DNA of 29,849 nt, taken from Paraspadella gotoi (taxonomy: Eukaryota > Animalia > Chaetognatha). The position numbers and the translations under genes are program-made. A model generated the notes under the pieces. The model had not been told where the DNA came from, ran no database searches, and saw only the letters and a program-made list of their open reading frames with translations. The stretch covers positions 1 through 29,849 of the forward strand of contig JBJCIZ010000322.1 of assembly GCA_051294375.1 (NCBI GenBank), in the 5' to 3' direction. Below, piece after piece: positions 3,810 to 28,630 of this stretch (the first letter of the stretch is position 1; every line of letters begins with the position of its first letter).

Positions 3810-4028
3810 GATGGTGCACTAAAATCCATCAACCGTTCATCAGCGGCCATTGGTGCCGGAGTCAAGTCATTTGCCTCCCAACCCAAAGGTCCGGGGTTCT
3901 AGCCTAGCAATTAAGAGGGACGGGGCGCTTAACCTGCCTGTAACATGGTGTTACAGACTGATCCGAAGCTCAGGGACTGCTTATATTGAACGGTTCGGTC
4001 ACCAACAACAATAATTTCTGTCTCTTCA
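3810..4028 (+). mobile_element. Family A solo-LTR-like element (tRNA-like head + twister), copy 1
   Basis: Homologous to 5907-6140 and 17813-18046. TSD AAAT (3806-3809 / 4029-4032). Ends CTCTTCA; short deletion at the 3' end of the tRNA-like part. Confidence 0.85.
3906..3981 (+). ncRNA. Twister ribozyme, type-P5 (family A)
   Basis: Same core; P2 is CCT/AGG (fully paired); single mismatches in P4 and P5. Confidence 0.7.
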
Positions 4029-5906: not shown

Positions 5907-6140
5907 TGAAGAGACAGTAATTATTGTTATATGTTAGTGACAGAACCGTTCAATATAAGCAGTCCCTGAGCTTCGGATCAGGCTGTAACACCAAGTTACA
6001 GGCGGGTTAAGCGCCCCGTCCCTCTTAACTGCTAGGCGACCACCGAGCTCGAACCCCGGACCTTTGGGTTGGGAGGCGAATGACTTTCCTCCGGCACCAC
6101 TGGCCGCTGATGAACGGTTGGTGGATTTTAGTCCATCATA
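5907..6140 (-). mobile_element. Family A solo-LTR-like element, copy 2 (234 bp)
   Basis: TSD ATTA (5903-5906 / 6141-6144). Termini TAT...TCA on the - strand. tRNA-like 6036-6107, twister 5958-6033. Confidence 0.9.
5958..6033 (-). ncRNA. Twister ribozyme, type-P5 permutation (family A, best copy)
   Basis: - strand: AGCAGTT(P5) aag AGG(P2') GA CGG GGCGCT(P1) TAA CCC GCC TGTAAC-ttggt-GTTACA(P3) G CCTG AT CCG AAGC T CAGG(P4/L4) GACTGCT(P5'). L4 CCG is complementary to the CGG after GA. Confidence 0.8.
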
Positions 6141-6443
6141 ATTATAGCTTTACAAATGGAAGTATATTTCTTATTTCGGCTCATGTTTGATAGAAGATTG
6201 TTATTGTCAAAGGTCGGGCTATTAGTATTAGCTCGGATTTCAGGGTCGGTATTAACCACTATGGCCCTATTATAAAATAAATATTTTTATCATTATATTA
6301 TTATTATTAAAAAAAATTATATACAATTATGAAAAAAATTTTTCAAGCAAATCGGAATCAATTAGAACATTAAAAAAGTTAAAAGTGCCCGACTACAAAA
6401 GATTCTTAACATGAACATGGTGTCTTTAATTCTTAGCACTTAA

Positions 6444-6985
6444 ACAATTTTAATCAGAATATCACTTAGACAGTCTGTTTTATAAATCATAACAACAAAA
6501 TAAATTACAAACCTTTTATAGAAAACGTTGCACTCAAAAAAGTGCTTATCACTGAAACAATTTAAATCAAAATGTCTAGTTAAAATCAGAATGAAGTAAA
6601 AATAATTTTTTCCATTGTCAGTCACACAGACCTATTATGGATAATGTTGCAAAAAGGTGATTGTCACATAGACAATTTTAATCAGAATGTCACTTAGACA
6701 GTCTGTTTTATAAATCATAATGACAAAATAAATTAATTTCATAAGGTCACCTTTTACAGAAAACGTTGCACTCAAAAAGGTGCTTGTCACTGAGACAATT
6801 CAAATCAAAATGTCACTTAGACATGTCTTGTTAAAATCAGAATGAAGTAAAAACAATTTTTTCCATTGTCAGTCACACAGACCTATTATGGATAATGTTG
6901 CAAAAGGTGATTGTCACATAGACAATTTTAAATCAGAATGTCACTTAGACATTTTTAGTTAAAATTAGAATAAAGTGAAAACAAG
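6444..6985. repeat. Tandem repeat, about 230-250 bp unit (2.2 copies) built from TGTCACTTAGACA subrepeats
   Basis: ACAATTTTAATCAGAAT restarts at about 6444, 6672 and 6922. Confidence 0.9.
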
Positions 6986-7633: not shown

Positions 7634-10600
7634 TTAAAACTGATTTAATACAATGAGGTTTCCTTTTTTGATATGTTGAAGCAGCATTTCGTGCTTAATT
7701 TCGCCATTAATTTCGGTTTTAAAACAAATAGACTTTTTAATCGGTTTGACAATATCATGTACTATTCCTTGAAGCCACTCACCGTTGACCTTTATTTCAA
7801 ATTGACAATTTATCAATTTTTCAGGCTCTTGAAAAAACATACTGTAAAGCTTTTGAGTATGTTTTACAGATTGCTTCTGTACAGCATTTGACCTCTTTTG
7901 TTGCAATGCAGTGATAACAACTTCAGCCGCATCAGTAACATCAATAACAGCAGGAGGCGTCTCTTCACAAAAATCCAGTCGCTTCAAATGTGGATTTTCT
8001 TGATAAATTTTCTCCAAGTGAACCAGTTTTTCAGCCAAAGAGTATTCTTTTTTGTTCAAGGTTTTGTTAAAAACATTTTTGTTCAAACAAGTAGCATCAC
8101 CAATTTTATGCAAAAATTCTATTAATAAATTTAACGCATGTAGTTTTTCTTTGTCATCATCTATCAAATCAAGCTTGGCTTGCACTTCATGTTGCAACCA
8201 TGGTGGACCATAAGTTTCAGTAAACTTTCTTACTATTTCCAACTTTTTTCTTCCTTTAGAATTTTCATTTTCGATTTTAGTGTCTATAATTTTTTGGCGT
8301 TTCTTCAACAAATCTGCTTTATAATTTTTATCAATAGTTATTTCTTCTGATTTACGTTTTTGATAAGATTTTCGAGCAGATTTAATTATTTCTTCTCTTT
8401 CAGAATCATTTTTGCTATCTATGTATTCTACAGGACGGTTAGTCCTTAACATACAATGTGCTTGCAAAGTAGTTGATTTTGCATTTGGTTTAGCATCTTT
8501 AATAAACCGCGCTAGTCCAAAAAGTGATTCCCCACGTTGGTTTGTTGTTGGAACGCTAAGCGTTCCATTTACAAAATTTGGATCATCTTGAAGCTCATCC
8601 AGCCTTCCACCATTTAGGAAATCGGCTGCTTGGGTTGTCAAAGTAAGAAGCATTGCTTCGGCAATAACTTGAACTACTTCAATTATTTGTGTCCTGTTTA
8701 AATCATTTGTTGCAATTGCTTCCATAACCTTATTGACTTTGTCTTTTTCCAGAAATGCTTCAGAGAAAGGCGATTTTCCTTCTAACATTTGGCTTCCATC
8801 ATGACTAACATCCAGTAAAAAATTCTGAAGACTCTGCAAATGAGGAATTAATTCAAGGATGTGAACCTTAGTTTTTCCATATTCATTGTAGTGATCCTTT
8901 CCATACAAAATCCTCCAGAAAGGAGCAATAACGAGTACATCAAAAACGCTCATCGCTCCTACTTGATTTAGAGCGAATTGGTCATTCATGTCGTAGTTAA
9001 TAGAACGATATATTTGTGATGTATCTTCATGTTCAAAAAATTCTTTAAGATGTGCCAGTAAAATAAGTATTCTGGTTGCTGCTGGAAATTCTATTCCAGC
9101 TCTGTTATGCTCATAATGCACAACATTTGGATCTGCAATTTTTTTGCTTTGTCGAAAAGCCTTCCATAGCTCCACAAGCCGCCAAGTTTGTTCCTTCTGG
9201 TGTGGATGCAACACTAATGAAATATTTCGATTCAATCGCTGAACTGCGGGTGATTCTCCCGTGTAAGCATAAGGGTTCCTCTCTTGAGGAACTGAAAGAG
9301 ATTCTAATTGTTTTAATGCATTTATTGTCGAGGTAGACATATTCGATAATAAATGCATTTTACAATAAAATGTATTTACTTTTTCCAAATTACTACGTTG
9401 GGCGGGAGTAAAGTCATTATTAGCCAGGATCATAGGCAACAATGTTTTTTTAAAATCTTCAAGTTGATTCGCAAATGCGCCATTCACAGGTGCCTGATCA
9501 GTCATTACGTTACTGATTTTTGTTATTAATTCTGCAAGTTTGCTTAACTCATCTTCATCAGGTTTTAATCCTTCTCGAGCAATCTCAGAAAACTTTTCAT
9601 GAACATAGCCCAATAATGACTTGGCATCTTCTTGACATATGGCTCGTAATCCTAGCGTATAGGTAGATCCATCAGCGAAATGAATTTGAGAACCAAGAAA
9701 ACTAATTGATTTATGGGTCGCAGAATCTATCGATAATGTTACATCTTTTTCTGACTCTAACTTTTCAGAAAGCTGTTTCATTAATAAGCAATGACTCTCT
9801 GTCACAAGTCTAGAAACAAAACTTCTAGATGGACATCTTTTCAAATCTGTCCCAGATAATCGCTGCAATACAGTTTTCATTGCCTGAGGTATTTGTCTGG
9901 CTGGTATTCCGAGCTGTAACAGGTCCCAGGCACAAACACGGAGCTCGTCACTGTACATACCATTTTCAAACAAATTAATTTCATTATTTTTTAAAGCCTC
10001 ATTCATTTGTTCCAAAATTCCTATTTCTTTTGATTTTTCTTGGTATTTTTTACGCATTTGTTCCATAACACCTTTTTTATACTCATCCTCTTGTATCTTT
10101 CTTTCCATAAACAGTTTGCTTTTGTACCGAATACGTGCGAGTTGTAATTGTGAAACGCGATTTTTATTTTTTTCTTCTTTCAACTGCGTTGAAAGATCAA
10201 GAATTCTTCGGTCTTTTTTCTCAATTAGCTTCTGTCGTTCTGAAGCGATTTTCATGGCGCGTTTCAAATCTGCTTTGACTTTAGCAAGTCGTATCAAATT
10301 TTTCATTTTCATCAATTTTTTACTTTTCTTCAACCTTTTGATTTTGCTGTTAGAATTATAATTTTTGTTTTCATCCCCACAAATATCACGAGAAGATACA
10401 TTAACATTCTGGATTTCCAAATCCAAAGCTGAAACAATTCCTGGATTTGACGCATTTTCTTCCGCATCAGTCGCAAAAAACGATAAAACGGGTTCATGAT
10501 CTGTCGTTAGGGGGGAATTGCTAACATTTTCAAAACTTGATACATTGATTTCTTGTATATCTAAATCTGATGAAGGAACAACATTTGGGACGGGCTCATC

Positions 10601-11589
10601 ATCTTCAACTTCAGTGGAAAAAATTGAAATATGCTGTAAATTTGGGACAGATTCATTGTCTGCTAAAAAGTTTTCATTTCTCTCAGAATGAGATTCAGGA
10701 GATCCAATATCTAAAAAAAAATTATTTTAAAAAAGATTTGATTCTTTTATTCCAAATTAATAAATTTTATAAAATAGTTTAAAACTATATAATACAGTCA
10801 TGAGCAAAAATCAAGCCACTTTATATCAGCACTTAAAAATCTCCCTGAATATTTGAATTTTAAAAGTAAATTAATATTTAAAAAAATTTTATGGAATCTC
10901 CAGTTTTTAAAGTTATACAGTGGCTTTTTTTTTTTCACTTGAGCGCAAATATATTTTTCTTAACATAAAATTGTTATGGCTATAACAATTGAACTGAAAT
11001 ATAATTTACTAGTATCAGCATTTAAGCTAACAAAATAATAATTTGAGTCAAACAACGCCGGATCTGCACCCGGTAAGCAGCGAATCAGATGATAATTTAT
11101 GATTAATCTTACAATTTTTTTATTTATTACAACGGACGGACAGACACCGATTTTTTTGCATAATTTATTTTAATTCAATGATCCGACAAAATTGTGGGGT
11201 GGGACCGACAAAGTGAATTGTAGAGCTGGAATCTGCTGTAAGTAGATGCGGCTAAAGACCATTTATGCTTTTAATTACCTAATGCGATAATTTATATAAA
11301 CAATGCTTAATTTTATCTATATTACTCATGAAAAATATATGTTTACTATCCAAAACTAACCTCTAAAATCTTCTTCTGAAAAAAACGGTGCCGATGAATA
11401 AGCTTCTGTCCCTTCAGCTCTTCTTCTTAATTTGCTACGAAATTTCCAACGAAGTTTTCTTAGTTTTGATCCAAAGCTCTTCTTGGATATACAAATGGTT
11501 GGATAGCGAGCTTTAACTAATTGCCAACACATATTTTCGCTGAGCCCGTCCGTGAGTTTTAACATTTCTAAATTTGTAATTAGTTCCAT
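7634..11589 (-). CDS. DDE DNA transposase, hAT-related (CxxH) group; two exons 11589..11361 and 10710..7634, about 1101 aa
   Basis: The 930-aa ORF has candidate catalytic residues D (VTLSID), D (NVMTDQAPVN), CxxH (FYCKMHLL) and E (PTTNQRGESLFG), plus an N-terminal coiled coil. The frame stays open upstream to an acceptor ttttttttAG at 10711-10720. The 77-aa ORF at 11356-11589 ends at a donor AG|GTTAG (exon end 11361). Both junctions are phase 1 (G+AT=Asp), total 3306 nt. Confidence 0.85.
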
Positions 11590-11903
11590 TTTTAAAAAAT
11601 GTTAGAGATGTCAACAAATAAAGCTGAAAAAAAAACACAAAATATTTCATTGATGTAAATCATTCAATTGAAAAATATAATAATAAATTTGGATTTAAAT
11701 AATTTCATGAAAAACCATTATGATAGAAAGCCATATCATTTCATACAATTTTACATAATTATTCATATTTAAATATGTGTATATCCTTTCTTTTTCGTTG
11801 TGTTTGTAGATTATAAGACAGTTTAATTATTTGCAACAATTTATTTTCAAAAGATGAACATGTTTCGGCTCAGGATTCGAGCCTTCATCAGCGCTGATGA
11901 AGG

Positions 11904-12163
11904 TGTGGCGGTATATTCACACCGCCTCACGTCCACCATCCTTCAGCCAAATCCATTGGCTCAGATGGGGAACACACCATCCCAGGCGTAGTGTTCCATC
12001 CACAAGCCAGTCCTAATGACTTCTCTCTGCGTTGGCAAAGCGAGACCGTCCTAGGGTAACCGCGCCAGTGACAGGATGCGTCAATGAGGGTCGGAAGCCC
12101 CCAAAGCCAACAGTGAGATGACCCATCCCAATGGACATCACAGGCAACCCGGCTGTTGCCATA
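11904..12163 (+). mobile_element. Family B solo-LTR-like element (260 bp) with tRNA-like boxes and twister, inserted into a hammerhead
   Basis: TSD AAGG (11900-11903 / 12164-12167). Termini TGTGGC...GCCATA. A-box-like TGGCTCAGATGG and degenerate B-box GTGTTCCATCC. Confidence 0.85.
12031..12111 (+). ncRNA. Twister ribozyme, type-P5 (family B)
   Basis: GTTGGC(P5) aaa GCGA GA CCG TCCTAGGG(P1) TAA CCGC GCC agTGAC..GTCAat(P3) G AGG GT CGG AAGC CCCC aaa GCCAAC(P5'). L4 CGG pairs with CCG. Confidence 0.78.
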
Positions 12164-12638
12164 AAGGCTTGAATCCTGAGCCAAAACATGTTCGTCTTTT
12201 AAAAATAAATTGTCGCCCATACAGAAACCAGCGCGAAACTTTCATAACGACGCCGATCTGATGACGCTGAATAAGTGAATATCCTCGCCAAAGTCTCATA
12301 TCCGAAGGCGTCAACGCGCGTGGTGAAGCCGATTCGCGATGTCAATGTCAGCACTTTATAATGTTTATTCGCTACACATGTAGGACAGAACGACCGACAA
12401 ACCAAAAAGAAGTTTCAATGTAATCCAATTTTTCGTTTCTAGGAAATATTTAACCACCCTAAAAACAACAAAAGTTTGATAATCACATACAATCATAACG
12501 CTACATTGTAGAAGCATTATTCTTTATGAAAAAAATTAATTAAGTATTCTATATATGAGCAGTGAGACAACATGGTAAAAATCAAGAAAAATGTTATCCC
12601 AAGTTTGATCGAAAAAATTCGAAAAAAAAGGATGAATA

Positions 12639-14622: not shown

Positions 14623-14696
14623 TTATGTAATAATAGAAACTGTCAGAACTTATTAAGAAGTTTTAATCACAAAAAAATAACTGCTCTTGCACAATG

Positions 14697-16256
14697 CAGA
14701 AGGCTTCATATTAGAAAATGATACGCCGTTTGGGAATGCAAATAGAACTATCAATATCAATTCAATATTTGACCCCTGAACAGAGATATGGGGTGAAAAT
14801 ATTTCAATTTTGAATAGTTGCATAGACGTTTATCCTAAAAAACGTATTTATTACTACCAACAAACTAACCTTAATTTTTAAGTTCATGAACATCAGCGGT
14901 TCATGACAGTTTTGAAATTAGAGAAAATTTGAAGTAAAATGATAAACCATGCTTCTTCAAACTGTCAATTTAACAAAAATACATAAATTTTATAGGTAAA
15001 ATGTTTGTTTACGTAGTTAACACATTACAACTTGTGCCGCAAATAAATTCATAAAAATTCTTTTAGGAAAATTTTGATTTTTTCGCCCCCTAGGGGTACA
15101 ACCCCTAGCCCCTGTATTTCCACTCAGGCGTTTAATCTTAAAATACCCTCGTTAGTTAGAAAAATAGTTAAAATTTAAAACAGGAAGACGAGCTTTTCAG
15201 CTCTCAGAAAAGGAAAAAAAACTTCGAGAAAGGCTAGAGTCCCATCGTGAAAAGTAAAAAAGGGCCTACTCTTTCAGCCTGTTAAATTTTAGAGAAAAAT
15301 CCCAAAAATGAGCCAAGACTGGCTCGCGCTCTAGACGAAGTCATTATATGAACAAAAAAATAATATATATAAAAATTAAACGATTTCATTTAAATCAAAA
15401 CCCGTTTAAAAAACGCTGTTTATTCAAAAAATTTAAAATTTACTTTCAACGGTCACAAGCGTTTCTATGAAAGACGTTTAAAAAAAATTATTTTACGGTA
15501 ACCGGGACGGTGCCAAAAAATTGTCCGGCCGTAGAGACGGTCGCGGACAGAAAAAACGAAAAATGCTCGGCCGTAGCACGGACGCGAGCTCAAGAAATAA
15601 AAAACGAAAAACTTAGTCTGGCCGTAGTACGCAGACTCACGACAAAAACGAAAAAAAAAAGTGTCTGGCCGTATACACGGACTCAAGACGCACGTGTCCA
15701 CAGATAACTACAGAAAAACGTTCACTGAGACACCGTCAGATGAAATTTCCAATGGAAACCACTGACCTTACTGGTGAATCAGAGCCGGACCCATTGAGTT
15801 CGTAAACTAAATTAAATGTGGCACTGGCATGAAAAATCAAAAAACAGAAAAACAAACGTATATACAAATTATCATAGGCACATTTAATAATTGTTTCGGA
15901 TGCCATTTCTGACACAATGCGCGTAATATTACCCACTTATCGTGCCTCATAAGTGTAACCATAGAAAAACAGGTAAGTAAATTACGAAACATTAACCACC
16001 CATATTTAAACAGCTCAGTGGTTTTAACAGAGGGAGAGCTAGCGACCATCCTCAAACCTCTAACAATGATTCTATGTGCCATAATAAGATCTTAGCCCCG
16101 TTTCCAATTAAGCGGGGATAGGGCTGTATCCTAACCCGTCCCGGCAACTATTGAGCTGAAAATGAAAATGTTAAAAAACAATGCTCAAAACTAATCAGAA
16201 GTTTTCCCCGCCGGGACGAAAAAACGGCGTATCATTTTCTAATATGAAGCCTTCTG
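14697..16256. mobile_element. Non-autonomous DNA transposon with perfect 35-bp TIR
   Basis: CAGAAGGCTTCATATTAGAAAATGATACGCCGTTT and its exact reverse complement; flanks TG / TA. No long ORF inside. Confidence 0.8.
15505..15700. repeat. Minisatellite, about 42-52 bp unit, inside the 14697-16256 element
   Basis: Four GGCCGTA..CGGAC..AAAAACGAAAAA units. Confidence 0.8.
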
Positions 16257-16875
16257 TATTCTTCACAAAGGTCGACTCCGCGAGAGTTCAATTGAAGGAA
16301 GTGGAACGGTGGTTGGATTCACTCCTAAATTTAAATACAAATTAACATCTTAGAACATTGTGTTTTATAGATGATCTCTCTATTTCGCGAAGATAAAACT
16401 GTCTCCATCCAAAAAATATTTAAATGATATTAGATTTAAATAATTTAACATAAAAAAAATCATTGAAAATAAATAACATCATAAATGTTAAAAATGTTAA
16501 AATTTAAAATAGTGAAAATAGTAATTTTGAATTTTTTATAGACAAAAGCACTTGTCACAAGTTACCATTTATCATTAAAGCAAAATATATAGTTTTAATC
16601 CAAGGTTTTTTTCTGCATTACCTCTTGTAGCAGTGGTTTGCGATGTGCCCAGGTTTCCCGCAGGTGTAACAGCGTCTCTTTTTCGATTGACTAAAAGTGA
16701 AATACAGAAAATCTTAAGTTTTTAAGGAATCGATTAAATGTTTTGCTTGCATCAGACGAAATAACATTTTATTCTTTTTAAAGCAAATGATAAAAAAGCG
16801 AGATTCTAATGATCAGACGAAATATTTCATATTTTTATTTGCGCCGCGAGTACTCGCATAGTAACTCTATAAGTC

Positions 16876-17310: not shown

Positions 17311-17845
17311 ATTTAATAAAAATTTTCGTTTTTTGCTAAATAATTTTTATCTAAAAATTAATTTTTACTGGTGGTAAGTTGTTCATAATTGACCTTTAGA
17401 ATTTTCATAACTACGCTCTCATAATACTCATTCAATCTTAAGCATTTGCGTGCTAGAATTTCATTTTCACTCACCAAAATACTAGTTTCATCACCCCGAA
17501 AATTCCGCGTGAGCTGGAAAAAAAAATTACGTTTAGAGTTCATATTTTATCACGAGTCGAAAGTATTTGTTGAATATAATAAAACAAACATCACAAAATT
17601 AATCTTGCTACCATATAATTGTGGCGACGAATGTTTCGTCACCACGGGGTCAACCCCAGTTGGCCACTATGTTTAGCCATTGCGAGAGAAGCAGGTTACT
17701 GACTCTCTCTACTTGATCAGTGCCTCGCTCTTTCTGTTTAGTCTCATCTCAAAATCATGTACTTTGAACGTCTCTCTGTTCCTGTTATTTAACATGCTAA
17801 TAAAACATGTATTATGGTGGACTAAAATCCACCAACCGTTCATCA

Positions 17846-17917
17846 GCGGCCATTGGTGTCGGAGGCAAGTCATTCACCTCCCAACCCAAAGGTCCGGGGT
17901 TCTAGCCCGGTGGTCGC
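17846..17917 (+). ncRNA. tRNA-derived (Gly-CCC-like) Pol III promoter module, not a functional tRNA
   Basis: 72 nt with acceptor stem GCGGCCA/TGGTCGC, A-box-like TGGTGTCGGAGG, loop CTCCCAA and B-box GGTTCTAGCC. The anticodon stem is poorly paired. Confidence 0.7.
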
Positions 17918-17919
17918 CT

Positions 17920-17995
17920 GGCAGTTAAGAGGGACGGGGCGCTTAACCCGCCTGTAACTCGGTGTTACAGCCTGATCCGAAGCTCAGGGACCGCT
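17920..17995 (+). ncRNA. Twister ribozyme, type-P5 (family A); predicted cleavage between 17944 and 17945
   Basis: Same core as 5958-6033, with one A-C mismatch in P5. Confidence 0.75.
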
Positions 17996-18334
17996 TATAT
18001 TGAACGGTTCTGTCATTAACATATATCAATAATCACTGTCTCTTCAGTATTATGTGCCTCTAAATATCATTTAATTTTTTTAAGTAACTGCTCAGTTTGA
18101 TTTTTATTAATGTAGTATGTATGATTGTATAAAAGATTGCTGATTGTTTTAAAGTTTTCCTAAAAAAAGTGTTTGCTTACATAACAAATTCATTTTCTTC
18201 CTGGCCGCCTTTTCCTCCGTCCTCACTTCTCCGTCCTTTCGGTTGACTTTTGGTCCACTCACTTTTCTTGACAAATTTTTTTTGGCCGCTGTTATAAAGA
18301 AAAATAAAAATATACGGGTAAATTATATTGAGTA

Positions 18335-18670
18335 CCGAGGGGGCTTCATATTAGAAAATGCGCTCTCAATTTTTTAAGTCCAGAATCGGTTCCGACCAAA
18401 CAACTGAACCGATTTTGATTATTATTTGTATACAAAATCCTTTTAGCAATACAAATAGAACTGCTGTTCAAGAGGCAATGATGTCTTTATTATGGGTAAA
18501 AGGGCATTTTTGAAACAATTTTGATAAATTTTAGTCAATTTTATAGTATTCGAACTTGCATGTTTCGTCATTTTATTTCGAGTTTTATTTTGAAATATTT
18601 GTAAACCTTCCTTGGAACAGATTCTGGGCTCGAAAAATCAAAAGCTCATTTTATAATATGAAGCTCTCTG
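18335..18670. mobile_element. MITE related to 14697-16256
   Basis: TIR core GCTTCATATTAGAAAATG / CATTTTATAATATGAAGC; TA at both ends; shares the internal motif CAAATAGAACT. Confidence 0.7.
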
Positions 18671-18717: not shown

Positions 18718-19557
18718 AAATGCAAATGTGCGAAGATTTTTTTAATCTGAAAATTTTTTTTGTAGTAAAACCCAAATTATTTAATATTTATATATCCAAA
18801 TTTTATATTGATTGGTTATGATTTGACTTGGCAATGAGCGGAGAAAAGTTGCCTTAAAAATCGTCTTTCATTTTAAAACTCAAACTTTTTTTTTCAATCT
18901 TTTTGTTTTAACTTTTGAATATTTTTTAAAGAACTTTTAGATAAAAAGTTATCATTGTTAATTCTTTTGAAAGCTTTTGGAAATTTGAAGAGAATAGATA
19001 TATATAACATAAAAATCAAGCCTAACCAGCTTTAATTTAATCAAGGTAATCAAAATTAAAATCCTATAAATAAATTATTTCAAAACAAATAACCTATTGA
19101 AACTATAATGATTTAACCAACTATTGTTTATATAAGTATCATAAAAATATTTAAAAAAAAATAAAATGGCTAATATAATTTAATAATTATTCAAACATGC
19201 TCTTTAGCAATCTTTAATTTTATCTTTAATTTTATCTTAATTTTGATTACCTTTGATTTAAATCTGTATTGACTAATTTTTATATTACAATATTTTTAAT
19301 TATGCCAATCTCTGCATATTTTTAAGAGCTTTCAGAAGATATTAATATTGATACTTTTTATCTAAAAAGTATTTTTAAAAATGTTCAGAAAGTTAGAAAA
19401 AAGATTGAAAAAAAAGATTAGTTTTAAAATGAAAGACAATTTTTAAGATATTTTCTTTGCTCATAGCCAAGTCAAAGCATAAGCAATCAATATGAAATTT
19501 GGATATATAAATGGTTTAGTCTTTACTTCAGATTAAAAAATATTGCACGTTTGCAAA
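18718..19557. repeat. Foldback-like long inverted repeat (about 330-bp diverged arms, AT-rich spacer)
   Basis: For example TTTGACTTGGCAATGAGC (about 18822) vs GCTCATAGCCAAGTCAAA (about 19459), and TTTTAGATAAAAAGT vs ACTTTTTATCTAAAA. Confidence 0.8.
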
Positions 19558-19734
19558 TGACGATTTTTTTTTAGCGGCGGGCTGTCGTGTGTCACCTTGT
19601 AAGTACCTTTTAAATTCGTTTTGAAAAATGTTCGTGATGATACAATCGCCTGTCCCATTTCTTTGCATTCCTGGATGTTTGGGGATTTGGAGCCATATTG
19701 GGAGGAAGAGAATAAAGATTTGGAGGAAATAATT

Positions 19735-20080
19735 GGGAAGGGGGAGGTAGATGAGGAGGAGGGAGATGAAAAGTGGGAGGGAGATGAGGAGGGAGATTAG
19801 GAGGAGGGAGATGAGAAGGGGGAGGGAGATGAGAAGGGGGAGGGAGATGAGAAGGGGGAGGGAGATGAGAAGAGGGAGGAGGATGAGAAGGGGGGGGGAT
19901 GAGAAGGGGGGGTGGAGGTGGAGGATGAGAAGGGGGAGGGGGATGAGAAGGGGGAGGAGGGAGGGGAAGAGGGAGGGGGATGAGAGAGAGAGGAGAGGGA
20001 GAGAGGGGAGGGAGATGAGAAGGGGGAGGGAGATGAGAAGGGGAGGTTGATGAGAAGGGGAGGGAGATAAGAAGGGGGTG
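19735..20080. repeat. Polypurine 18-bp minisatellite (ATGAGAAGGGGGAGGGAG)
   Basis: Direct tandem copies; translates as PPPSHL repeats on the - strand. Confidence 0.9.
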
Positions 20081-20946
20081 GTGGAAAAGATCGAGGAGTA
20101 ATGACAGGAATTGGAGAGCCAAAGGCGGGAGGCGGCGGGATTATGATTTGGGGCGGCGAAGTAAGGCCGGGAGGGGGAGGCAAGTCCGTCTCCATCGTTT
20201 CGTTTCTGTAAAATTATTTATGTTTGAGATAAGTAATGCGTGAAAAATATCAAATATATTAAATGCCGGATCTTCATTACCACTGACGATTCCATGAAAA
20301 TCTCAAATCAATCAACTGATCTGCTAATGAGTAATAGACGTTGAAAGCTGAAGGGGCTAGTTTTTTTTTGATAAATTTTATGTTCTGAGATGATTTAAGT
20401 GGCGGTTGACCGACGGACCGACGAAGTGAATCATAACCCTGTGTCTATGTTAAAGATACTTAATAATATCTTATTATTTGTTAGGAATATTGGATCAGAA
20501 TAAATCTTGGTTTGAAAACAATTTTTACCGTTTCATTTAATAAAAATAATTAGATCGTCTATAATTACAATAAAATCATATTTGAAAAAACCGACAGTTG
20601 CTATTTGCCATTTCATCAATGATTATTAGCGTTTTATTAAATTATTATCAGATTGGTTTGAATTTTTAATATTCGAATATAATTCAAAATAATTTAACCT
20701 GGATGCCGCATCCTCCACTTCCTGGGCCCAATCGGAAACGGTTGGGACCCAGCCATCCCCGAAAGATTCAGCTTTAGAAAATAAAGGTATTATTTGTTAA
20801 ATATAATGCACAAAAATGATAATGTTGTAAGAAAATAAAAATGGAAAAAAACAACAAAGTGATGTAATCAATTCGAAGTATAAAAATATAACTTACAATT
20901 TGAACTACTGGTGTAACTCATGTCTGAAAAAGTTTGAAAATAGGAC

Positions 20947-21069
20947 GTTTTTCTACAACGACTTTATTTGTAATAAAACGTACATGTTTCGGCTTGCATA
21001 CAAGAAGAAGGCTTGTATGCAAACCGAAACATGTACGTTTTAATACAAATAAAGTCATTGTAGAAAAAC
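20947..21069. mobile_element. Inverted repeat of 5'-truncated hammerhead/pLTR fragments
   Basis: About 58-bp arms around AAGAAGG. The right arm reads (aa)GAAGA AGGCTTG-tatg-CAAACC GAAACATGTA..AATAAA. Confidence 0.7.
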
Positions 21070-21869
21070 ATTAAAAACGTCTTCCAAGACTTTTGAATGA
21101 TAAAGAAATTAAAAATAATAACAGTATAGTGATCTAAAAAAATCTTAAAATCACAATGATTCATTGCTCAATATTTATAAAAAAAAAAGATAGTAAAATC
21201 TGACGAGATAAAAATAATGGCAATGTGCTCTTTACTAAAACCTGCTGCACTATATTGTTCCCTTAGCCCCCCCAGCAAGCCTACCTTTGTGCCCGTCTCG
21301 CCACTGAGAAAACGAGTCCCGTAACGTCGTCCTTGAGCGGATGACTTCGGTAAACAGATTCCTCTCCGGAGACGAGATTCAGTGGGTCCGGAGAAGAGCG
21401 GGAGTTTCGCAGTGCGGCGTCGTTGTGGTCGGAGGCGGCGACTTGACTAAGAGACATTCGTCGTTAGAGCAAATTCTAAATTTAAACGGACAGTCAATAA
21501 ATACTACTACTAATTAATAAAAGTAATAATCACAATTAAAAACAAACAATCACGAAATCAAATACGTAAGAAATACGGGAGACGATGGAGACGTATAAAC
21601 AATTATGATTCCAAAGAACCAAGAAGCAAAAAGAAATAAAACTAAAACAAAATGAGGTACAAATCATAAGTAAGGCATATATTAAAAGTAAACGTAAAAG
21701 TAAGAAAACCAAATATAAAAAGTCAAATACGAATCCATCAATCGCAGATGAACGGAGGCAGACGATCCCGAAAGTACCATGATGGAAAAAAAATTGTCAA
21801 ATATATTTTTTAGCCAATAAATAAATTTAATAATCACTTTTAAATCAATTGTAACCATTTGTAAGGAGT

Positions 21870-21916
21870 TTTATTAAAAAATATATTTCGGTTTAAATGT
21901 AAGCTTTCATCAGTAT
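21870..21916 (-). ncRNA. Degenerate hammerhead remnant (re-copied near 26036-26052 and 27640-27683)
   Basis: - strand: CTGATGA A agctta-catt-taaacc GAA ATATAT..AATAAA; stem II is mismatched. Confidence 0.45.
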
Positions 21917-22771
21917 AAAAATAAATTATTTAATAAAACAATTATTTTTACAAATTTTAAAAGAAAAAAATTGTAAAAGTATTTATTTTATAAATGCATT
22001 TGTTTTTGCGCTGATAAAAATTAGTATTTTTAAATAAAACTAATTGTATATAAACAAACAATTTATTTTTTATCTCAAAATAAAAATAATAATTAATATT
22101 AATTAAAAATTATTATTTTTAAATATAAAATTATAAAATTTATATTACTACGCAAAAAAATGTATATTATTATACAAACTGAAATAACGCTAAAACTAAT
22201 AAAAAGAAAATAAAATTAAATAGATTAAGAACCTACCGACTGGTAGTACGCTTAGTTACGGTCGTTAAATAAAAATTAAATTAAAATTACATAATTATTT
22301 AATATATAAAAATATTTTTAAAAAAAGTTACCTTCAACTGTTTTTACTTTTTTTGATCAAAAGGATTACTTACATTATTATTAATATTATATTTTAATCA
22401 GATTTTTTTGACAGTTTTAATAATACATCCAAAAATAAATAAATAATAATTTTATTTACAAAAAATTTACCTGAAGGTTTATAAATTTTATTGATACTTA
22501 ATAATTAAAAAAGATTCTGAAGCAACTACAAAATTAATATAATTTTAATACTATTTTTTTAAATATGAATTTAAATTCATCCTTAAATTTATCTTAATAA
22601 AAATGATACAATAACCATTTGACATAAAACTGAGAAAAAGCAAAGATTTTTAATAATAATAGTTTAATTCAAAAAATAATAAAAAATAATTAGAAATTAA
22701 TATAAATAAAAATTATAAATATTAAAAAAATAAAAACATTTTTAAAATAACTATTTTTTTTTGCATAGAAC

Positions 22772-25700
22772 NNNNNNNNNNNNNNNNNNNNNNNNNNNNN
22801 NNNNNNNNNNNNNNNNNNNNNNNNNNNNNNNNNNNNNNNNNNNNNNNNNNNNNNNNNNNNNNNNNNNNNNNATATAACTTAAATAAGTGATTTAATGATA
22901 ATTTAAAACCAATTGGGGGTTAATTTTACTTCCTCCGAACGCGGTAAACCCAAATTTGGTTACAATTGGATGACNNNNNNNNNNGTGGCACCCCTTTGAT
23001 TAGCTCTTTAGTCAGTGGAGGATGGTATTTTTAGTAGAAAATAATTCCAATCTTCACTAGTCCTTACCTTCTTACTATTTTGATCATTACTTGTCTTTTT
23101 TAAAAAAANNNNNNNNNNNNNNNNNNNNNNNNNNNNNNNNNNNNNNNNNNNNNNNNNNNNNNNNNNNNNNNNNNNNNNNNNNNNNNNNNNNNNNNNNNNN
23201 NNNNNNNNNNNNNNNNNNNNNNNNNNNNNNNNNNNNNNNNNNNNNNNNNNNNNNNNNNNNNNNNNNNNNNNNNNNNNNNNNNNNNNNNNNNNNNNNNNNN
23301 NNNNNNNNNNNNNNNNNNNNNNNNNNNNNNNNNNNNNNNNNNNNNNNNNNNNNNNNNNNNNNNNNNNNNNNNNNNNNNNNNNNNNNNNNNNNNNNNNNNN
23401 NNNNNNNNNNNNNNNNNNNNNNNNNNNNNNGGCGCCTGAGGACTCGGGAGCTTCTGCGCCAAAGAGGAGGCGCCATGAAGGTTCTGATGAAGCAAAAGCG
23501 CCGAAGAGGCGCCGCAAATGCCCGAAGGCGTTTCCCTTCTCCTTTCTCCGGCCGGATTACNNNNNNNNNNNNNNNNNNNNNNNNNNNNNNNNNNNNNNNN
23601 NNNNNNNNNNNNNNNNNNNNNNNNNNNNNNNNNNNNNNNNNNNNNNNNNNNNNNNNNNNNNNNNNNNNNNNNNNNNNNNNNNNNNNNNNNNNNNNNNNNN
23701 NNNNNNNNNNNNNNNNNNNNNNNNNNNNNNNNNNNNNNNNNNNNNNNNNNNNNNNNNNNNNNNNNNNNNNNNNNNNNNNNNNNNNNNNNNNNNNNNNNNN
23801 NNNNNNNNNNNNNNNNNNNNNNNNNNNNNNNNNNNNNNNNNNNNNNNNNNNNNNNNNNNNNNNNNNNNNNNNNNNNNNNNNNNNNNNNNNNNNNNNNNNN
23901 NNNNNNNNNNNNNNNNNNNNNNNNNNNNNNNNNNNNNNNNNNNNNNNNNNNNNNNNNNNNNNNNNNNNNNNNNNNNNNNNNNNNNNNNNNNNNNNNNNNN
24001 NNNNNNNNNNNNNNNNNNNNNNNNNNNNNNNNNNNNNNNNNNNNNNNNNNNNNNNNNNNNNNNNNNNNNNNNNNNNNNNNNNNNNNNNNNNNNNNNNNNN
24101 NNNNNNNNNNNNNNNNNNNNNNNNNNNNNNNNNNNNNNNNNNNNNNNNNNNNNNNNNNNNNNNNNNNNNNNNNNNNNNNNNNNNNNNNNNNNNNNNNNNN
24201 NNNNNNNNNNNNNNNNNNNNNNNNNNNNNNNNNNNNNNNNNNNNNNNNNNNNNNNNNNNNNNNNNNNNNNNNNNNNNNNNNNNNNNNNNNNNNNNNNNNN
24301 NNNNNNNNNNNNNNNNNNNNNNNNNNNNNNNNNNNNNNNNNNNNNNNNNNNNNNNNNNNNNNNNNNNNNNNNNNNNNNNNNNNNNNNNNNNNNNNNNNNN
24401 NNNNNNNNNNNNNNNNNNNNNNNNNNNNNNNNNNNNNNNTCTTGGACCATTTACCCATTATGCAAATGAAAACTCATAAATAGTTATTAAATCGTTCTTC
24501 ATTTGGTAGTTCCTGATCCTTAGACCAAGATGAAGCAATANNNNNNNNNNNNNNNNNNNNNNNNNNNNNNNNNNNNNNNNNNNNNNNNNNNNNNNNNNNN
24601 NNNNNNNNNNNNNNNNNNNNNNNNNNNNNNNNNNNNNNNNNNNNNNNNNNNNNNNNNNNNNNNNNNNNNNNNNNNNNNNNNNNNNNNNNNNNNNNNNNNN
24701 NNNNNNNNNNNNNNNNNNNNNNNNNNNNNNNNNNNNNNNNNNNNNNNNNNNNNNNNNCCGGGGTTAGGGTTAAGGGTGGTTTAGGGTTAGGGGTAGTGAG
24801 AATTAAATGGGTTTAGGGTAATTAGGGATTATTTTTTGGCGAAAGTAAAATTTAGCCTCTTAATCTATAATTACAATTGCTGGATGGCAGTAAATAAAAA
24901 TTTTNNNNNNNNNNNNNNNNNNNNNNNNNNNNNNNNNNNNNNNNNNNNNNNNNNNNNNNNNNNNNNNNNNNNNNNNNNNNNNNNNNNNNNNNNNNNNNNN
25001 NNNNNNNNNNNNNNNNNNNNNNNNNNNNNNNNNNNNNNNNNNNNNNNNNNNNNNNNNNNNNNNNNNNNNNNNNNNNNNNNNNNNNNNNNNNNNNNNNNNN
25101 NNNNATATCGAATTTCGATGACAATCACAAGAAATATCATAAGAGAAAACGAGTCCCGTCACGTNNNNNNNNNNCGGATGACTTCGGTAAACAGATTCCC
25201 TCTCTCCGGAGACGAGATTCAGCGCGATTGGTGGGTCCGGAGAAGAGCGGGAGTTTAACCTTTCGCAGTGCGGCGTCNNNNNNNNNNGAGGCGGCGACTT
25301 GACTGAGAGACACTCGTCGTTAGAGCAAATTCTAAATTTAAACGGACNNNNNNNNNNTACTACTACTAATTAATAAAAGTAATAATCACAATGAAACACA
25401 AACAATTAATCACGAANNNNNNNNNNCAAGAAATACGGGAGATGGAGACGTATAAACAATTATGATTCCAAAGATCGTGTAAAATGTAATCAAAGAACCA
25501 AGAAGAAATAAAACTAAAACAAAATGAGGCACAAATCATAAGGCATTGAAGAGACAGTAATTATTGATAAGTGTTAATGACANNNNNNNNNNNNNNNNNN
25601 NNNNNNNNNNNNNNNNNNNNNNNNNNNNNNNNNNNNNNNNNNNNNNNNNNNNNNNNNNNNNNNNNNNNNNNNNNNNNNNNNNNNNNNNNNNNNNNNNNNN

Positions 25701-28630
25701 NNNNNNNNNNNNNNNNNNNNNNNNNNNNNNNNGGCACCAATGGCCGCTGATGAACGGATGGTGGATTTTAGTTTAGTCCACCATAGCATATATTAAAAGT
25801 AAACGTAAAAGTAAGAAAACCAAATNNNNNNNNNNNNNNNNNNNNNNNNNNNNNNNNNNNNNNNNNNNNNNNNNNNNNNNNNNNNNNNNNNNNNNNNNNN
25901 NNNNNNNNNNNNNNNNNNNNNNNNNNNNNNNNNNNNNNNNNNNNNNNNNNNNNNNNNNNNNNNNNNNNNNNNNNNNNNNNNNNNNNNNNNNNNNNNNNNN
26001 NNNNNNNNNNNNNNNNNNNNNNNNNNNNNNNNNNNGTAAGCTTTCATCAGTATAAAAATAAATTATTTAATAAAAAAATTATTTTCACAAATTTTAAGAG
26101 AAAAAATTTTTAAAAATATTTATTTCATAAATGCATTTGTTTTTACGCTGATAAAAACTTATATTAAAACCGAAATTGATATTTTCTAATAAAACTTATA
26201 GTATATAAACAAACAATTTATTTTTATCTAAAAATAAAAATAATAATTAATATTAATTTAAAACTATTATNNNNNNNNNNNNNNNNNNNNNNNNNNNNNN
26301 NNNNNNNNNNNNNNNNNNNNNNNNNNNNNNNNNNNNNNNNNNNNNNNNNNNNNNNNNNNNNNNNNNNNNNNNNNNNNNNNNNNNNNNNNNNNNNNNNNNN
26401 NNNNNNNNNNNNNNNNNNNNNNNNNNNNNNNNNNNNNNNNNNNNNNNNNNNNNNNNNNNNNNAGTTACCTTCAACTGTTTTTACTTTTTTTGATCAAAAG
26501 GACTAGTTACATTATTATTAATATTATATTTTAATCAGATTTTTTTNNNNNNNNNNNNNNNNNNNNNNNNNNNNNNNNNNNNNNNNNNNNNNNNNNNNNN
26601 NNNNNNNNNNNNNNNNNNNNNNNNNNNNNNNNNNNNNNNNNNNNNNNNNNNNNNNNNNNNNNNNNNNNNNNNNNNNNNNNNNNNNNNNNNNNNNNNNNNN
26701 NNNNNNNNNNNNNNNNNNNNNNNNNNNNNNNNNNNNNNNNNNNNNNNNNNNNNNNNNNNNNNNNNNNNNNNNNNNNNNNNNNNNNNNNNNNNNNNNNNNN
26801 NNNNNNNNNNNNNNNNNNNNNNNNNNNNNNNNNNNNNNNNNNNNNNNNNNNNNNNNNNNNNNNNNTATTTTTTTTGCATAGAACTCTTATATTTTTTGTT
26901 GGATAAAAATAAAATACAGCTTATATGAATTATAAAAAAACAAATTTTTTTATATTTAAATTTTATTTTTCGATTCTTACATTAACAGAGAAGAGATTGT
27001 GTAGAGTGATCTAGGATCTGTTGCGAGGGATCAATGAGGAGTGCAATTGCGCGATGATGTTTCGGGATATGGCACCAGTTATATTTCATGCATCTCTTTT
27101 TATATTTACTCACACTTATTCCACTATGTTTTTTAATATCCACACTTATGATATAGACATTGCCAGATGTTCCTAGGACTTTAGTGAGGTCAGGGTTCAA
27201 GCGCCTCGCGTGTGCTCGCTCTGTACTGCCCAGATATTTGGTAATCGAGCCGACCCCGGCCCTTGGAAACACCGACTTTTTAGCTTCTAAGTTTCCTCTT
27301 CCTCCGGGCTCTTATGCATACCCTAGGCCACCTCTTTCTTTGAGGCTTTGGACAGACGAATGAACTTTTCCTCCGGCGACCAATGGCCGCTGATGAACGG
27401 ATGGTGGGAGTTTAGTTTATCCGCATCCTAGCATATTATGTCAAAAGTAATACGTAAAAGTAAAGAACAACCCAAATTATAAAAAGTCAATACGAAATCA
27501 TCAATCGCAGATGAACGGAGGCAGACGATCCTGAAAGTACCATGAACTGGAAAAAATGTACAAAATACTTATTTTTTAGCCAATAAATAAATTTAATAAT
27601 CACGGTTTTAAATCATTTGTTACCATTTGTAATGAGTTTTATTAAAAATATATTGTCGGTTTAAATGTAAGCTTTCATCAGTATAAAAATAAATTATTTA
27701 ATAAAAAAAAATTATATTTTTTATTTTCACAAATTTAAAAGAAAAATGTTTTAAAAAATATTTATTTCCATAAATGCATTTGTTTTTTACTGCTGAATAA
27801 AACTTTATAATTAAAACCGAAATTGATATTATCTAATAAACTTATAGTATAATAACAAACAACCACTATCATTTTTATCTAAAAATAAAAATAATAATTA
27901 ATATTAATTTAAAACTATTATTTTTAAAATACTAAAATTTTAGTTACTACATTCAAAATAAATATATATATTATAACAAACTGAAATACATTGCTAAAAC
28001 TAGTAAAAGAAAACGAAAATTAAATAGATTAAGAAACTAGCCGACCGGTAAGTACGCTTAGTTACGGTTCGTTGAATATGTTTATAAATTAACCCAATCT
28101 AAATTTAATATATACGTATCCATATTTTACCCAGAAAAAAGTTAACCTTCAACTGTTTGTTTACTCATTTTTTGATCAAAAGGAACTAGTTTACATTATT
28201 TATGGTAATATTATATTTTAATCATGATTTTTTTTGACAGTCATCATCTCTAATCTAGTCCAAAAATAAATAAATAATAATTTTATCTGTACAAAAAATT
28301 TACGCTGAAGGTTTATAACTTTTATTGATACTTAATAATTAAAAAAGAATTCTGAAGCATCACTACAATATTAATATAATTTTTAATAAGCATTTTTTAC
28401 ATATGAATTTAAATTCCACCTTGGAAATTTATCTTAATGAAAAATGATGACATATAACCATTTGACATAGAAAACTGAGAAAAAGCAAAGATTTTTTAAT
28501 AATAATAGTTCTAACACTCAAAATATAAATAAAAAATAATTAGAAATTGATGATAAATAGAAAAGTATAAATATAAAAAAAATAAAAAACATTTTTATAA
28601 AATAAACTATCTTTTTTTTGCATAGACTCT
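22772..28630 (+). other. Gapped/noisy duplicate of earlier sequence (haplotype, segmental duplication or assembly artefact)
   Basis: 22872-25144 matches 566-2904 at an offset of about 22.3 kb. 25143-26884 matches 21307-22771. 27360-28630 is an indel-rich third copy of about 21675-22771. Confidence 0.85.
25547..25785 (-). mobile_element. Family A solo-LTR-like element, copy 4 (interior masked by N)
   Basis: Both termini visible. TSD GCAT (25543-25546 / 25786-25789). The paralogous site at about 21672-21690 (aaggcatatattaaaag) is empty. Confidence 0.85.

Follow-up and report, generated by a model that had tools for sequence, protein, structure and literature searches.

A probable Helenus-type TRIM from Paraspadella gotoi whose LTR combines a tRNA-like module with a predicted twister ribozyme

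Can a twister ribozyme take part in the life cycle of an LTR element? This question is raised by a short repeat, with its reference copy at 17813-18046 on the plus strand of the Paraspadella gotoi DNA analyzed here (29,849 nucleotides in all, hereafter the window), in which a preliminary description placed a tRNA-type promoter and a twister ribozyme within one solo-LTR-like mobile unit. The window is AT-rich, gene-poor, and repeat-laden, contains many N gaps, and appears to be a eukaryote draft assembly. On its minus strand, an intact single-exon open reading frame of 1030 amino acids (7634-10726) is transposase-like by eye; no Pfam family scored above the cut-off, and none of 7993 candidates was a homolog at E 1e-20. 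Inverted-repeat elements resembling MITEs or small DNA transposons were found at 18786-19512, 11821-12228, 18338-18669, 14688-16265, and 20947-21069. Tandem repeats were also observed, namely a TTAGGG-like run (2449-2504), a 26-bp minisatellite (1341-1528), a degenerate array with a ~125-bp unit (6437-6984), and a GA-rich array with an 18-bp unit (19705-20104).

Four copies of the repeat with fixed ends were confirmed, as had been proposed, and the intact ones share 91-94% mutual identity. The length of 234 bp given for the unit holds for the reference copy and for that on the minus strand at 5907-6140, but the copy at 3810-4028 (plus strand) has lost 11 nt and 4 nt in two deletions and is 219 bp long, and the copy at 25547-25785 (minus strand) is 239 bp long. 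The 11-nt deletion lies in the 3' part of the tRNA-like module described below; the middle 150 bases of the 25547 copy are N, which hides its tRNA-like part and ribozyme. To the four copies, a fifth was added at 27354-27416 (minus strand), a partial and error-rich copy of the 5' end. All four copies are flanked by exact 4-bp duplications, each different from the others (GTAT, ATTA, AAAT, and GCAT, read on the plus strand), in agreement with the preliminary description. The GTAT repeats of the reference copy lie at 17809-17812 and 18047-18050, and those of the other copies lie at 5903-06 and 6141-44 (5907 copy), 3806-09 and 4029-32 (3810 copy), and 25543-46 and 25786-89 (25547 copy). A duplicated segment at ~21306-21714 carries the empty target site of the 25547 insertion as a single GCAT (21675-21678, plus strand), and this site therefore fixes both the length of the duplication and the start of the element at TA. 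The notion that all copies begin with TG, and hence the TG...CA termini first assigned, was rejected on this basis: every 3' end is CA, and the 5' end is TA in three of four copies and GA in the other. Three versions of the segment (21306-22769, 25143-26546, and 27379-28626) are 77-92% alike, one being empty, one filled, and one noisy, and the last of these holds the partial fifth copy; they are possibly uncollapsed haplotypes or a local duplication.

No poly-A tail was present on the element, again as described, and neither a T4 run inside it nor a terminal inverted repeat was found. Just inside the 5' end, a terminal 6-bp hairpin (17816-17833) has 6/6 pairs in the reference copy and 5/6 in the 5907 copy. 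A 9-bp outer stem (17834-17842 with 18001-18009) encloses the tRNA-like module and the ribozyme; it is paired at 9/9 positions in both copies tested, and eight of its pairs are present in the MFE and centroid folds. The folding energy of the whole element was not better than that of shuffled sequences (z -0.55).

The family was then examined in public contigs of the same organism, where nine listed runs contained at least half of the sampled words of the element. Of these, X1 and X3 are two samples from a single study, and X5 belongs to a different one; X8 is presumed to be RNA by guess only and was not counted as evidence of expression. In X1, 15,491 of 7,042,937 contigs aligned to a 355-base stretch around the 17813 copy, and the summed depth on the element, which is not a copy number, exceeded that of the unique flank by about four orders of magnitude. 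The family is very abundant. Contig depth fell steeply at both ends of the element without a 3' bias, and loose ends were concentrated at the termini in 3 of 4 runs on the 17813 stretch, the fourth yielding a single contig, and in 4 of 4 runs on the 5907 copy. Among the best-supported rows listed, terminal loose ends agreed poorly with one another, as expected from many independent insertions. In X10, a run from a different organism, a single contig aligned, over the 3' end of the LTR only. Among the minor variants, C>T and G>A changes predominated (22 of the 38 listed in X1, some of them in the flank), an excess that may reflect CpG methylation of the family.

The sequence that adjoins the 3' end was analyzed with the 5907 copy, whose 3' end is nearer to the common form of the family. 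One base past this end, a class of loose ends consisted of contigs with a GC-rich string in common (19 contigs in X1, with an agreement of 0.61 and a median length of 17; 15 in X3; and 10 in X5, where 13/16 letters were alike). No such class was among the best-supported rows listed for X8. Beside it was a class of ordinary flanks beginning with ATA, comprising 112, 120, and 88 contigs in X1, X3, and X5, respectively; identical junctions collapse in contigs, so that these counts do not give a ratio of solo to full elements. In the sense of the element, the GC-rich string reads T followed by TGGTGAGCCCGAC, and the latter is identical at 13 of 14 bases to the tRNA-Trp PBS of Gypsy-32_NVi and Helenus-2_SyJa. 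The motif had no real match inside the window. As it follows the 3' end of the family LTR in other contigs, the copies in the window are solo LTRs. Ahead of the LTR start, G was the plurality letter in 7/7 run rows and the X1 consensus was purine-rich, with an agreement of only ~0.4, a weak signal that hints at a polypurine tract. Both a PBS and a polypurine tract had been named as features to look for; the PBS was thus found past the 3' end, while the tract is at most suggested. The contig tables reach 30 loose letters past the LTR, short of the whole internal region, and no contig joining the 3' end to the 5' start was among the 15 of 57 joints listed, for either copy.

The fixed ends, the exact 4-bp duplications, and the PBS directly after the 3' end together identify the unit as an LTR and not a SINE, upholding the LTR-type insertion first proposed, with the PBS class present in X1 and X3 and partly in X5. 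Also considered were a non-autonomous DNA transposon and a SINE or Sm-alpha-like non-LTR repeat spread by target-primed reverse transcription. In favor of these, our element does not begin with TG, and Schistosoma Sm-alpha, according to the available parts of PMC6765202 and PMC4918200, likewise places a self-cleaving ribozyme after a Pol III promoter derived from a tRNA. Sm-alpha differs in that its ribozyme is a hammerhead and it consists of tandem non-LTR repeats with neither a PBS nor a fixed 4-bp duplication. Moreover, the tRNA-like module of our element is preceded by 33 bases of LTR, and neither a tail nor inverted termini are present. An ordinary SINE had been expected to show duplications of variable length and 5'-truncated copies throughout the genome; in the window, the duplications were 4 bp long in 4/4 copies, and genome-wide the evidence consists of contig depth lacking a 3' bias. 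The PBS class largely refutes an origin of this kind, which we consider very improbable.

The tRNA-like module is 72 nt long (17846-17917, plus strand), has a 7/7-bp acceptor-like stem, and is a putative internal Pol III promoter. It contains A-box-like (17854-17865) and B-box-like (17898-17908) sequences at a tRNA-like spacing, with the GGTTC core kept. The A-box-like sequence lacks the conserved A of the A-box consensus, and in the usual B box of the family GGTTC is followed by T at a position that is normally a purine. The usual form of the family thus has one departure from the consensus in each box (consensus as given in the available part of PMC10886601, section 3.5). No tRNA was called in the window by ARAGORN or by Rfam. 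Of the proposed tRNA-plus-twister arrangement, the module and the ribozyme fold 2 nt downstream of it were recovered, but the tRNA identity was not endorsed by either program. A T-run after the tRNA-like part is absent from this LTR, in contrast to most of the Helenus LTRs examined. Transcription by Pol III from the module is plausible.

We next considered the ribozyme. A type-P5 twister fold spans 17920-17995 on the plus strand, with helices P5 (17920-26/17989-95), P4 (17971-75/17984-88), P3 (17952-58/17964-70), and P2 (17930-32/17947-49) and pseudoknots T1 (17935-37/17977-79) and T2 (17950-51/17982-83). Self-cleavage is predicted between U and A of the UAA loop (17944-17945) by homology to twisters (alignment; PMC8501958 Table 1, in the part of that paper available). 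The UAA loop, the general-acid A, the general-base G with the A that follows it, and the U...AAGC of L4 are found in all three visible copies. Both pseudoknots are Watson-Crick (T1, 3/3 pairs; T2, 2/2 pairs), and T1 is formed by a covarying CCG/CGG pair. P3 has 7 bp, P4 is paired at 5/5 positions, and P5 at 7/7 in the 5907 copy, in which P3-P5 are fully paired, and at 6/7 in the 17813 copy; the common family letters at 17920 and 17992 also give a fully paired P5. In sequence, P3 is very close to Schistosoma twisters and to the P1-type consensus of Rfam. The commonest variants of the family, at 17959-60, fall in the P3 loop, and in contigs of the 17813 stretch no variant at 3% or above was listed at U17944, A17945, A17946, G17933, A17934, or the T2 bases. 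The remaining helices are imperfect. P2 has only 3 bp, with a C.A mismatch in two of the three visible copies, including the common form, and full pairing (3/3) in the 3810 copy. P1 is essentially absent, its place being taken by a 6-nt linker with at most one pair in the monomer.

The Rfam twister models, which had been suggested as a check, gave no match in the window and none even at E values up to 10 on 291 bases; the Rfam P5 model expects an 8-bp P1. The element was also compared with twisters taken from viral (phage) and metagenome contigs. Among these loci, 5 of 20 passed the Rfam gathering score, and in another scan 7 of 7 matched at E 0.01 or better. A P1-free descriptor, loosened after the element sequence was known, recovered exactly the three intact copies in the window and found nothing in 40,000 dinucleotide-shuffled versions of the element. 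To reduce circularity, a covariance model (R1) was built from seven rows, none from the window, chosen to include the CCG/CGG variant. Seven loci excluded from it (L002, L003, L004, L045, L055, L247, and L266) were all scored as held-out positives, and these positives gave 24.4-73.3 bits. In the window, the three intact copies ranked first at 19.8-21.5 bits, with the next match at 14.1. These scores are modest, and the corresponding E-values of 0.009-0.019 are of rough calibration. The copies nevertheless scored above all 78 decoys, the best of which reached 15.6 bits; the decoys were viral loci picked only for the same short motifs, including L140, a weak descriptor match. A further 120 viral loci were subjected to the descriptor scan only, and almost all were chance matches, as were the 78. 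The scores of the three copies are near those of true held-out twisters such as L006 (20.1) and L055 (24.4). A 3-bp P2 is also found in the Rfam-passing twisters L045, L055, and L060, and a CCG/CGG pseudoknot in the twisters L247, L266, and L335. In a study of ~2,600 natural twisters, flaws in P1 and P2 were reported to be tolerated, P1 being dispensable, and flaws in the pseudoknots or catalytic bases to be harmful (PMC11662667, section 32, in the available text).

These results indicate that a twister fold in the LTR is well supported by modeling. The type-P5 assignment made at the outset is borne out by the catalytic bases, the pseudoknots, P3-P5, the descriptor, and, at modest scores, R1, but not by P1, which is missing; P2 is present with 2/3 or 3/3 pairs. 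The window contained no match to a hammerhead. Relatives of the element numbered zero in metagenome contigs, in viral contigs, and in prokaryote genomes. A relaxed metagenome scan gave one match, L335, which was rejected as a relative since it is an unrelated prokaryote-type twister. At this locus (L335:351-1577), P5-type twisters with the CCG/CGG pseudoknot occur in three near-identical copies at spacings of 434 and 709 bases, and a partial fourth copy is also present. In the viral contigs L046 and L062, two short P1-type twisters lie head to tail, and in the second of these the 6-nt linker is palindromic when the U of the cleavage site is counted.

The linker that replaces P1 in our element (17938-17943, plus strand) is a self-complementary hexamer, and its duplex is worth -8.3 kcal/mol. 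In the pseudoknot-free ensemble of the monomer, a competing helix ties up T1, P2, and T2; its probability is 0.99 for the 5907 copy and ~0.8 for the 3810 copy. The loop of the resulting hairpin exposes most of the palindrome. To open the monomer would cost ~7.7 kcal/mol (-29.2 blocked versus -21.5 open). A strand-swapped dimer in which two LTRs share a P1 helix was predicted at -54.7, compared with -43.0 for two open monomers; with pseudoknots uncounted, it lies higher in energy than a pair of blocked monomers (2 x -29.2 = -58.4), a cost of ~1.9 kcal/mol per ribozyme. These energies suggest that the two LTRs act as a dimer with a P1 formed from the hexamers, and such a dimer would be the likeliest route to cleavage because the monomer is predicted to fold into the blocking hairpin. 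Against the dimer, a self-complementary hexamer has a chance frequency of 2-5%, P1 is reported to be dispensable, and the searches described above gave no relative with covariation in the hexamer. The same energies also fit a dead ribozyme; given the probability of the blocking helix, the ribozyme could be inactive.

In the latter case, the element would be a Helenus-like TRIM of the ordinary kind. Its LTR would have acquired a twister from elsewhere, such as the 5' end of a non-LTR element, and an inactive hairpin would now keep that ribozyme locked. The palindrome might then serve only the dimerization of RNA for packaging, with replication through normal terminal redundancy. The blocking helix, the missing P1, the mismatch in P2 of the common form, and the lack of an Rfam match all favor this explanation, and in a family so young, intact catalytic bases prove little. 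Against it stand the intactness of every catalytic and pseudoknot position, the covarying T1 pair, and the freedom of the core positions from listed variants. The monomers of plant retrozymes likewise fold their ribozyme into a blocked state, as stated in the available part of PMC4918200, and the LTR is without the T-run seen after the tRNA in most of the Helenus LTRs examined. On balance, we regard a locked twister as rather unlikely.

An active ribozyme could go further and be gated by dimerization. The element would then be an animal LTR retrozyme in which the monomer conceals the active site in a hairpin, with the palindromic loop exposed, and only paired LTRs form P1 and fire both sites, while solo LTRs and the finished circle stay silent. 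We put this forward tentatively, as a possibility suggested by the folding model. A precedent is provided by the minimal type I hammerheads of amphibian retrozymes and Penelope-like elements, which act as dimers; as in our element, a single copy has too short a helix beside its cleavage site (PMC7761336 and PMC7229834, available parts). In those systems the helix predicted to form between two copies is hammerhead helix III, whereas here it would be twister P1. No dimer-acting twister was described in the literature searched, most subscription papers being outside its scope.

What was observed directly is the DNA anatomy of the element, that is, its ends, duplications, PBS, tRNA-like module, twister fold, and abundance. 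From this we infer Pol III transcription, cleavage, circularization, and non-autonomy. Our main reading, to which we assign a probability of roughly 0.6, is that the unit is the LTR of a likely non-autonomous, Gypsy-mobilized TRIM of the Helenus type, in which a twister cuts once per LTR and the unit-length RNA, likely circularized, is primed by tRNA-Trp. It corresponds to the retrozyme cycle outlined in the available text of PMC4918200, extended by a Pol III promoter and with a twister as the ribozyme. Pol III would initiate within the 5' LTR, at its tRNA-like module; as the LTR has no T-run, the transcript would extend through the internal region and the 3' LTR. The twister would then cut at 17944/17945 in both LTRs, most likely as a dimer, although cleavage as a monomer is also possible. 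The product would lack terminal redundancy, and because P5 and P2 hold its ends together, a host enzyme, for instance the ligase RtcB, would close it into a circle. Starting from the primer at the PBS, a Gypsy reverse transcriptase would copy over the junction and so rebuild whole LTRs, promoter included, and a Gypsy integrase would insert the rebuilt element with 4-bp duplications.

The Trp PBS and the 4-bp duplications would fit equally well if the LTR belonged to an autonomous (gag-pol) Gypsy element in which the twister trims the 5' end, as in Perere-3 and RTE non-LTR elements. However, cuts in both LTRs would strip the mRNA of its cap and terminal redundancy. The tRNA-bearing LTRs described to date in the available sections of PMC10886601 are those of short non-coding TRIMs, and no gag-pol-sized open reading frame adjoins any copy in the window, though these copies are solo LTRs. 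An autonomous element is accordingly judged to be quite unlikely. In the Perere-3 twister variants of Schistosoma mansoni (PMC8501958, available part), P1 is also weak or missing, the host is also a retroelement, and the P3 sequence is very similar. Those twisters are of type P1, occupy the 5' terminus of an autonomous non-LTR element, and obtain P1 from the target site, whereas the present one is of type P5 and lies in the middle of an LTR.

The non-autonomous TRIM that we favor was further compared with known systems. Helenus TRIMs and TRIMp3 (Kojima 2024, PMC10886601, in its available sections) likewise carry a tRNA-like sequence in an LTR of 100-320 bp, generate 4-bp duplications in animals, and use Gypsy-type PBSs, including Trp. 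Wasp Helenus families also include LTRs that start with TA, so that a start other than TG is no bar to membership. The A box of Helenus TRIMs is more canonical than that of our LTR. The word "twister" does not occur in the available text of PMC10886601, where no ribozyme is named in any LTR, nor did its sequence file yield a twister core in motif searches. In two gall-wasp LTRs of that file (DataS1), Helenus-2_SyJa-LTR and Helenus-2_SyUm-LTR, inspection by eye pointed to a complete type III hammerhead downstream of the tRNA-like part; its stems measure 6, 7, and 4 bp, and loops I and II are complementary over 12 bases. Both LTRs have no T-run after the tRNA and have a Trp PBS, and the hammerhead is unmentioned in the available portion of the paper. 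If real, it would be an unrecognized animal LTR retrozyme.

Plant LTR retrozymes, as presented in the available part of PMC4918200, share with our element a ribozyme in the LTR, 4-bp duplications, a PBS, Gypsy-type mobilization, many solo LTRs, and a ribozyme blocked in the monomer fold. They differ in having a type III hammerhead and a tRNA-Met PBS where ours has a twister, a tRNA-Trp-like PBS, and a tRNA-like internal promoter. Plant retrozymes form circles, whereas a circle is predicted here, and the present host is an animal. Animal retrozymes are stated in reviews (PMC7761336 and PMC7229834, available parts) to be without an LTR, a PBS, or a polypurine tract. The element may therefore work like an LTR retrozyme without being a member of that group as defined, that is, by a hammerhead. 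By its anatomy, it likely sits between Helenus TRIMs and plant LTR retrozymes, as a counterpart of the latter with a twister and a tRNA promoter. What the model adds as new is the self-complementary hexamer in place of P1 and a monomer predicted to fold shut.

The view that this combination had gone undescribed held in the literature searched, in which neither such an element nor any twister in an LTR was reported; most subscription papers, Repbase, and Dfam lay outside this search, and the LTR family itself may already be catalogued with its ribozyme unnoted. Eukaryotic twisters are mostly without a known job and have been reported only at the 5' ends of non-LTR elements, as far as the available sources go. 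The presence of one in an LTR that has a PBS would imply a second biological role for the class. If the proposed cycle is true, the LTR-retrozyme strategy extends beyond plants and hammerheads, and it would explain how a Pol III TRIM keeps its promoter without terminal redundancy. A twister that depends on a partner would, if true, be a natural RNA switch. Should both the dimer gate and the wasp hammerheads prove true, Pol III TRIMs would have recruited different ribozymes repeatedly for circular intermediates.
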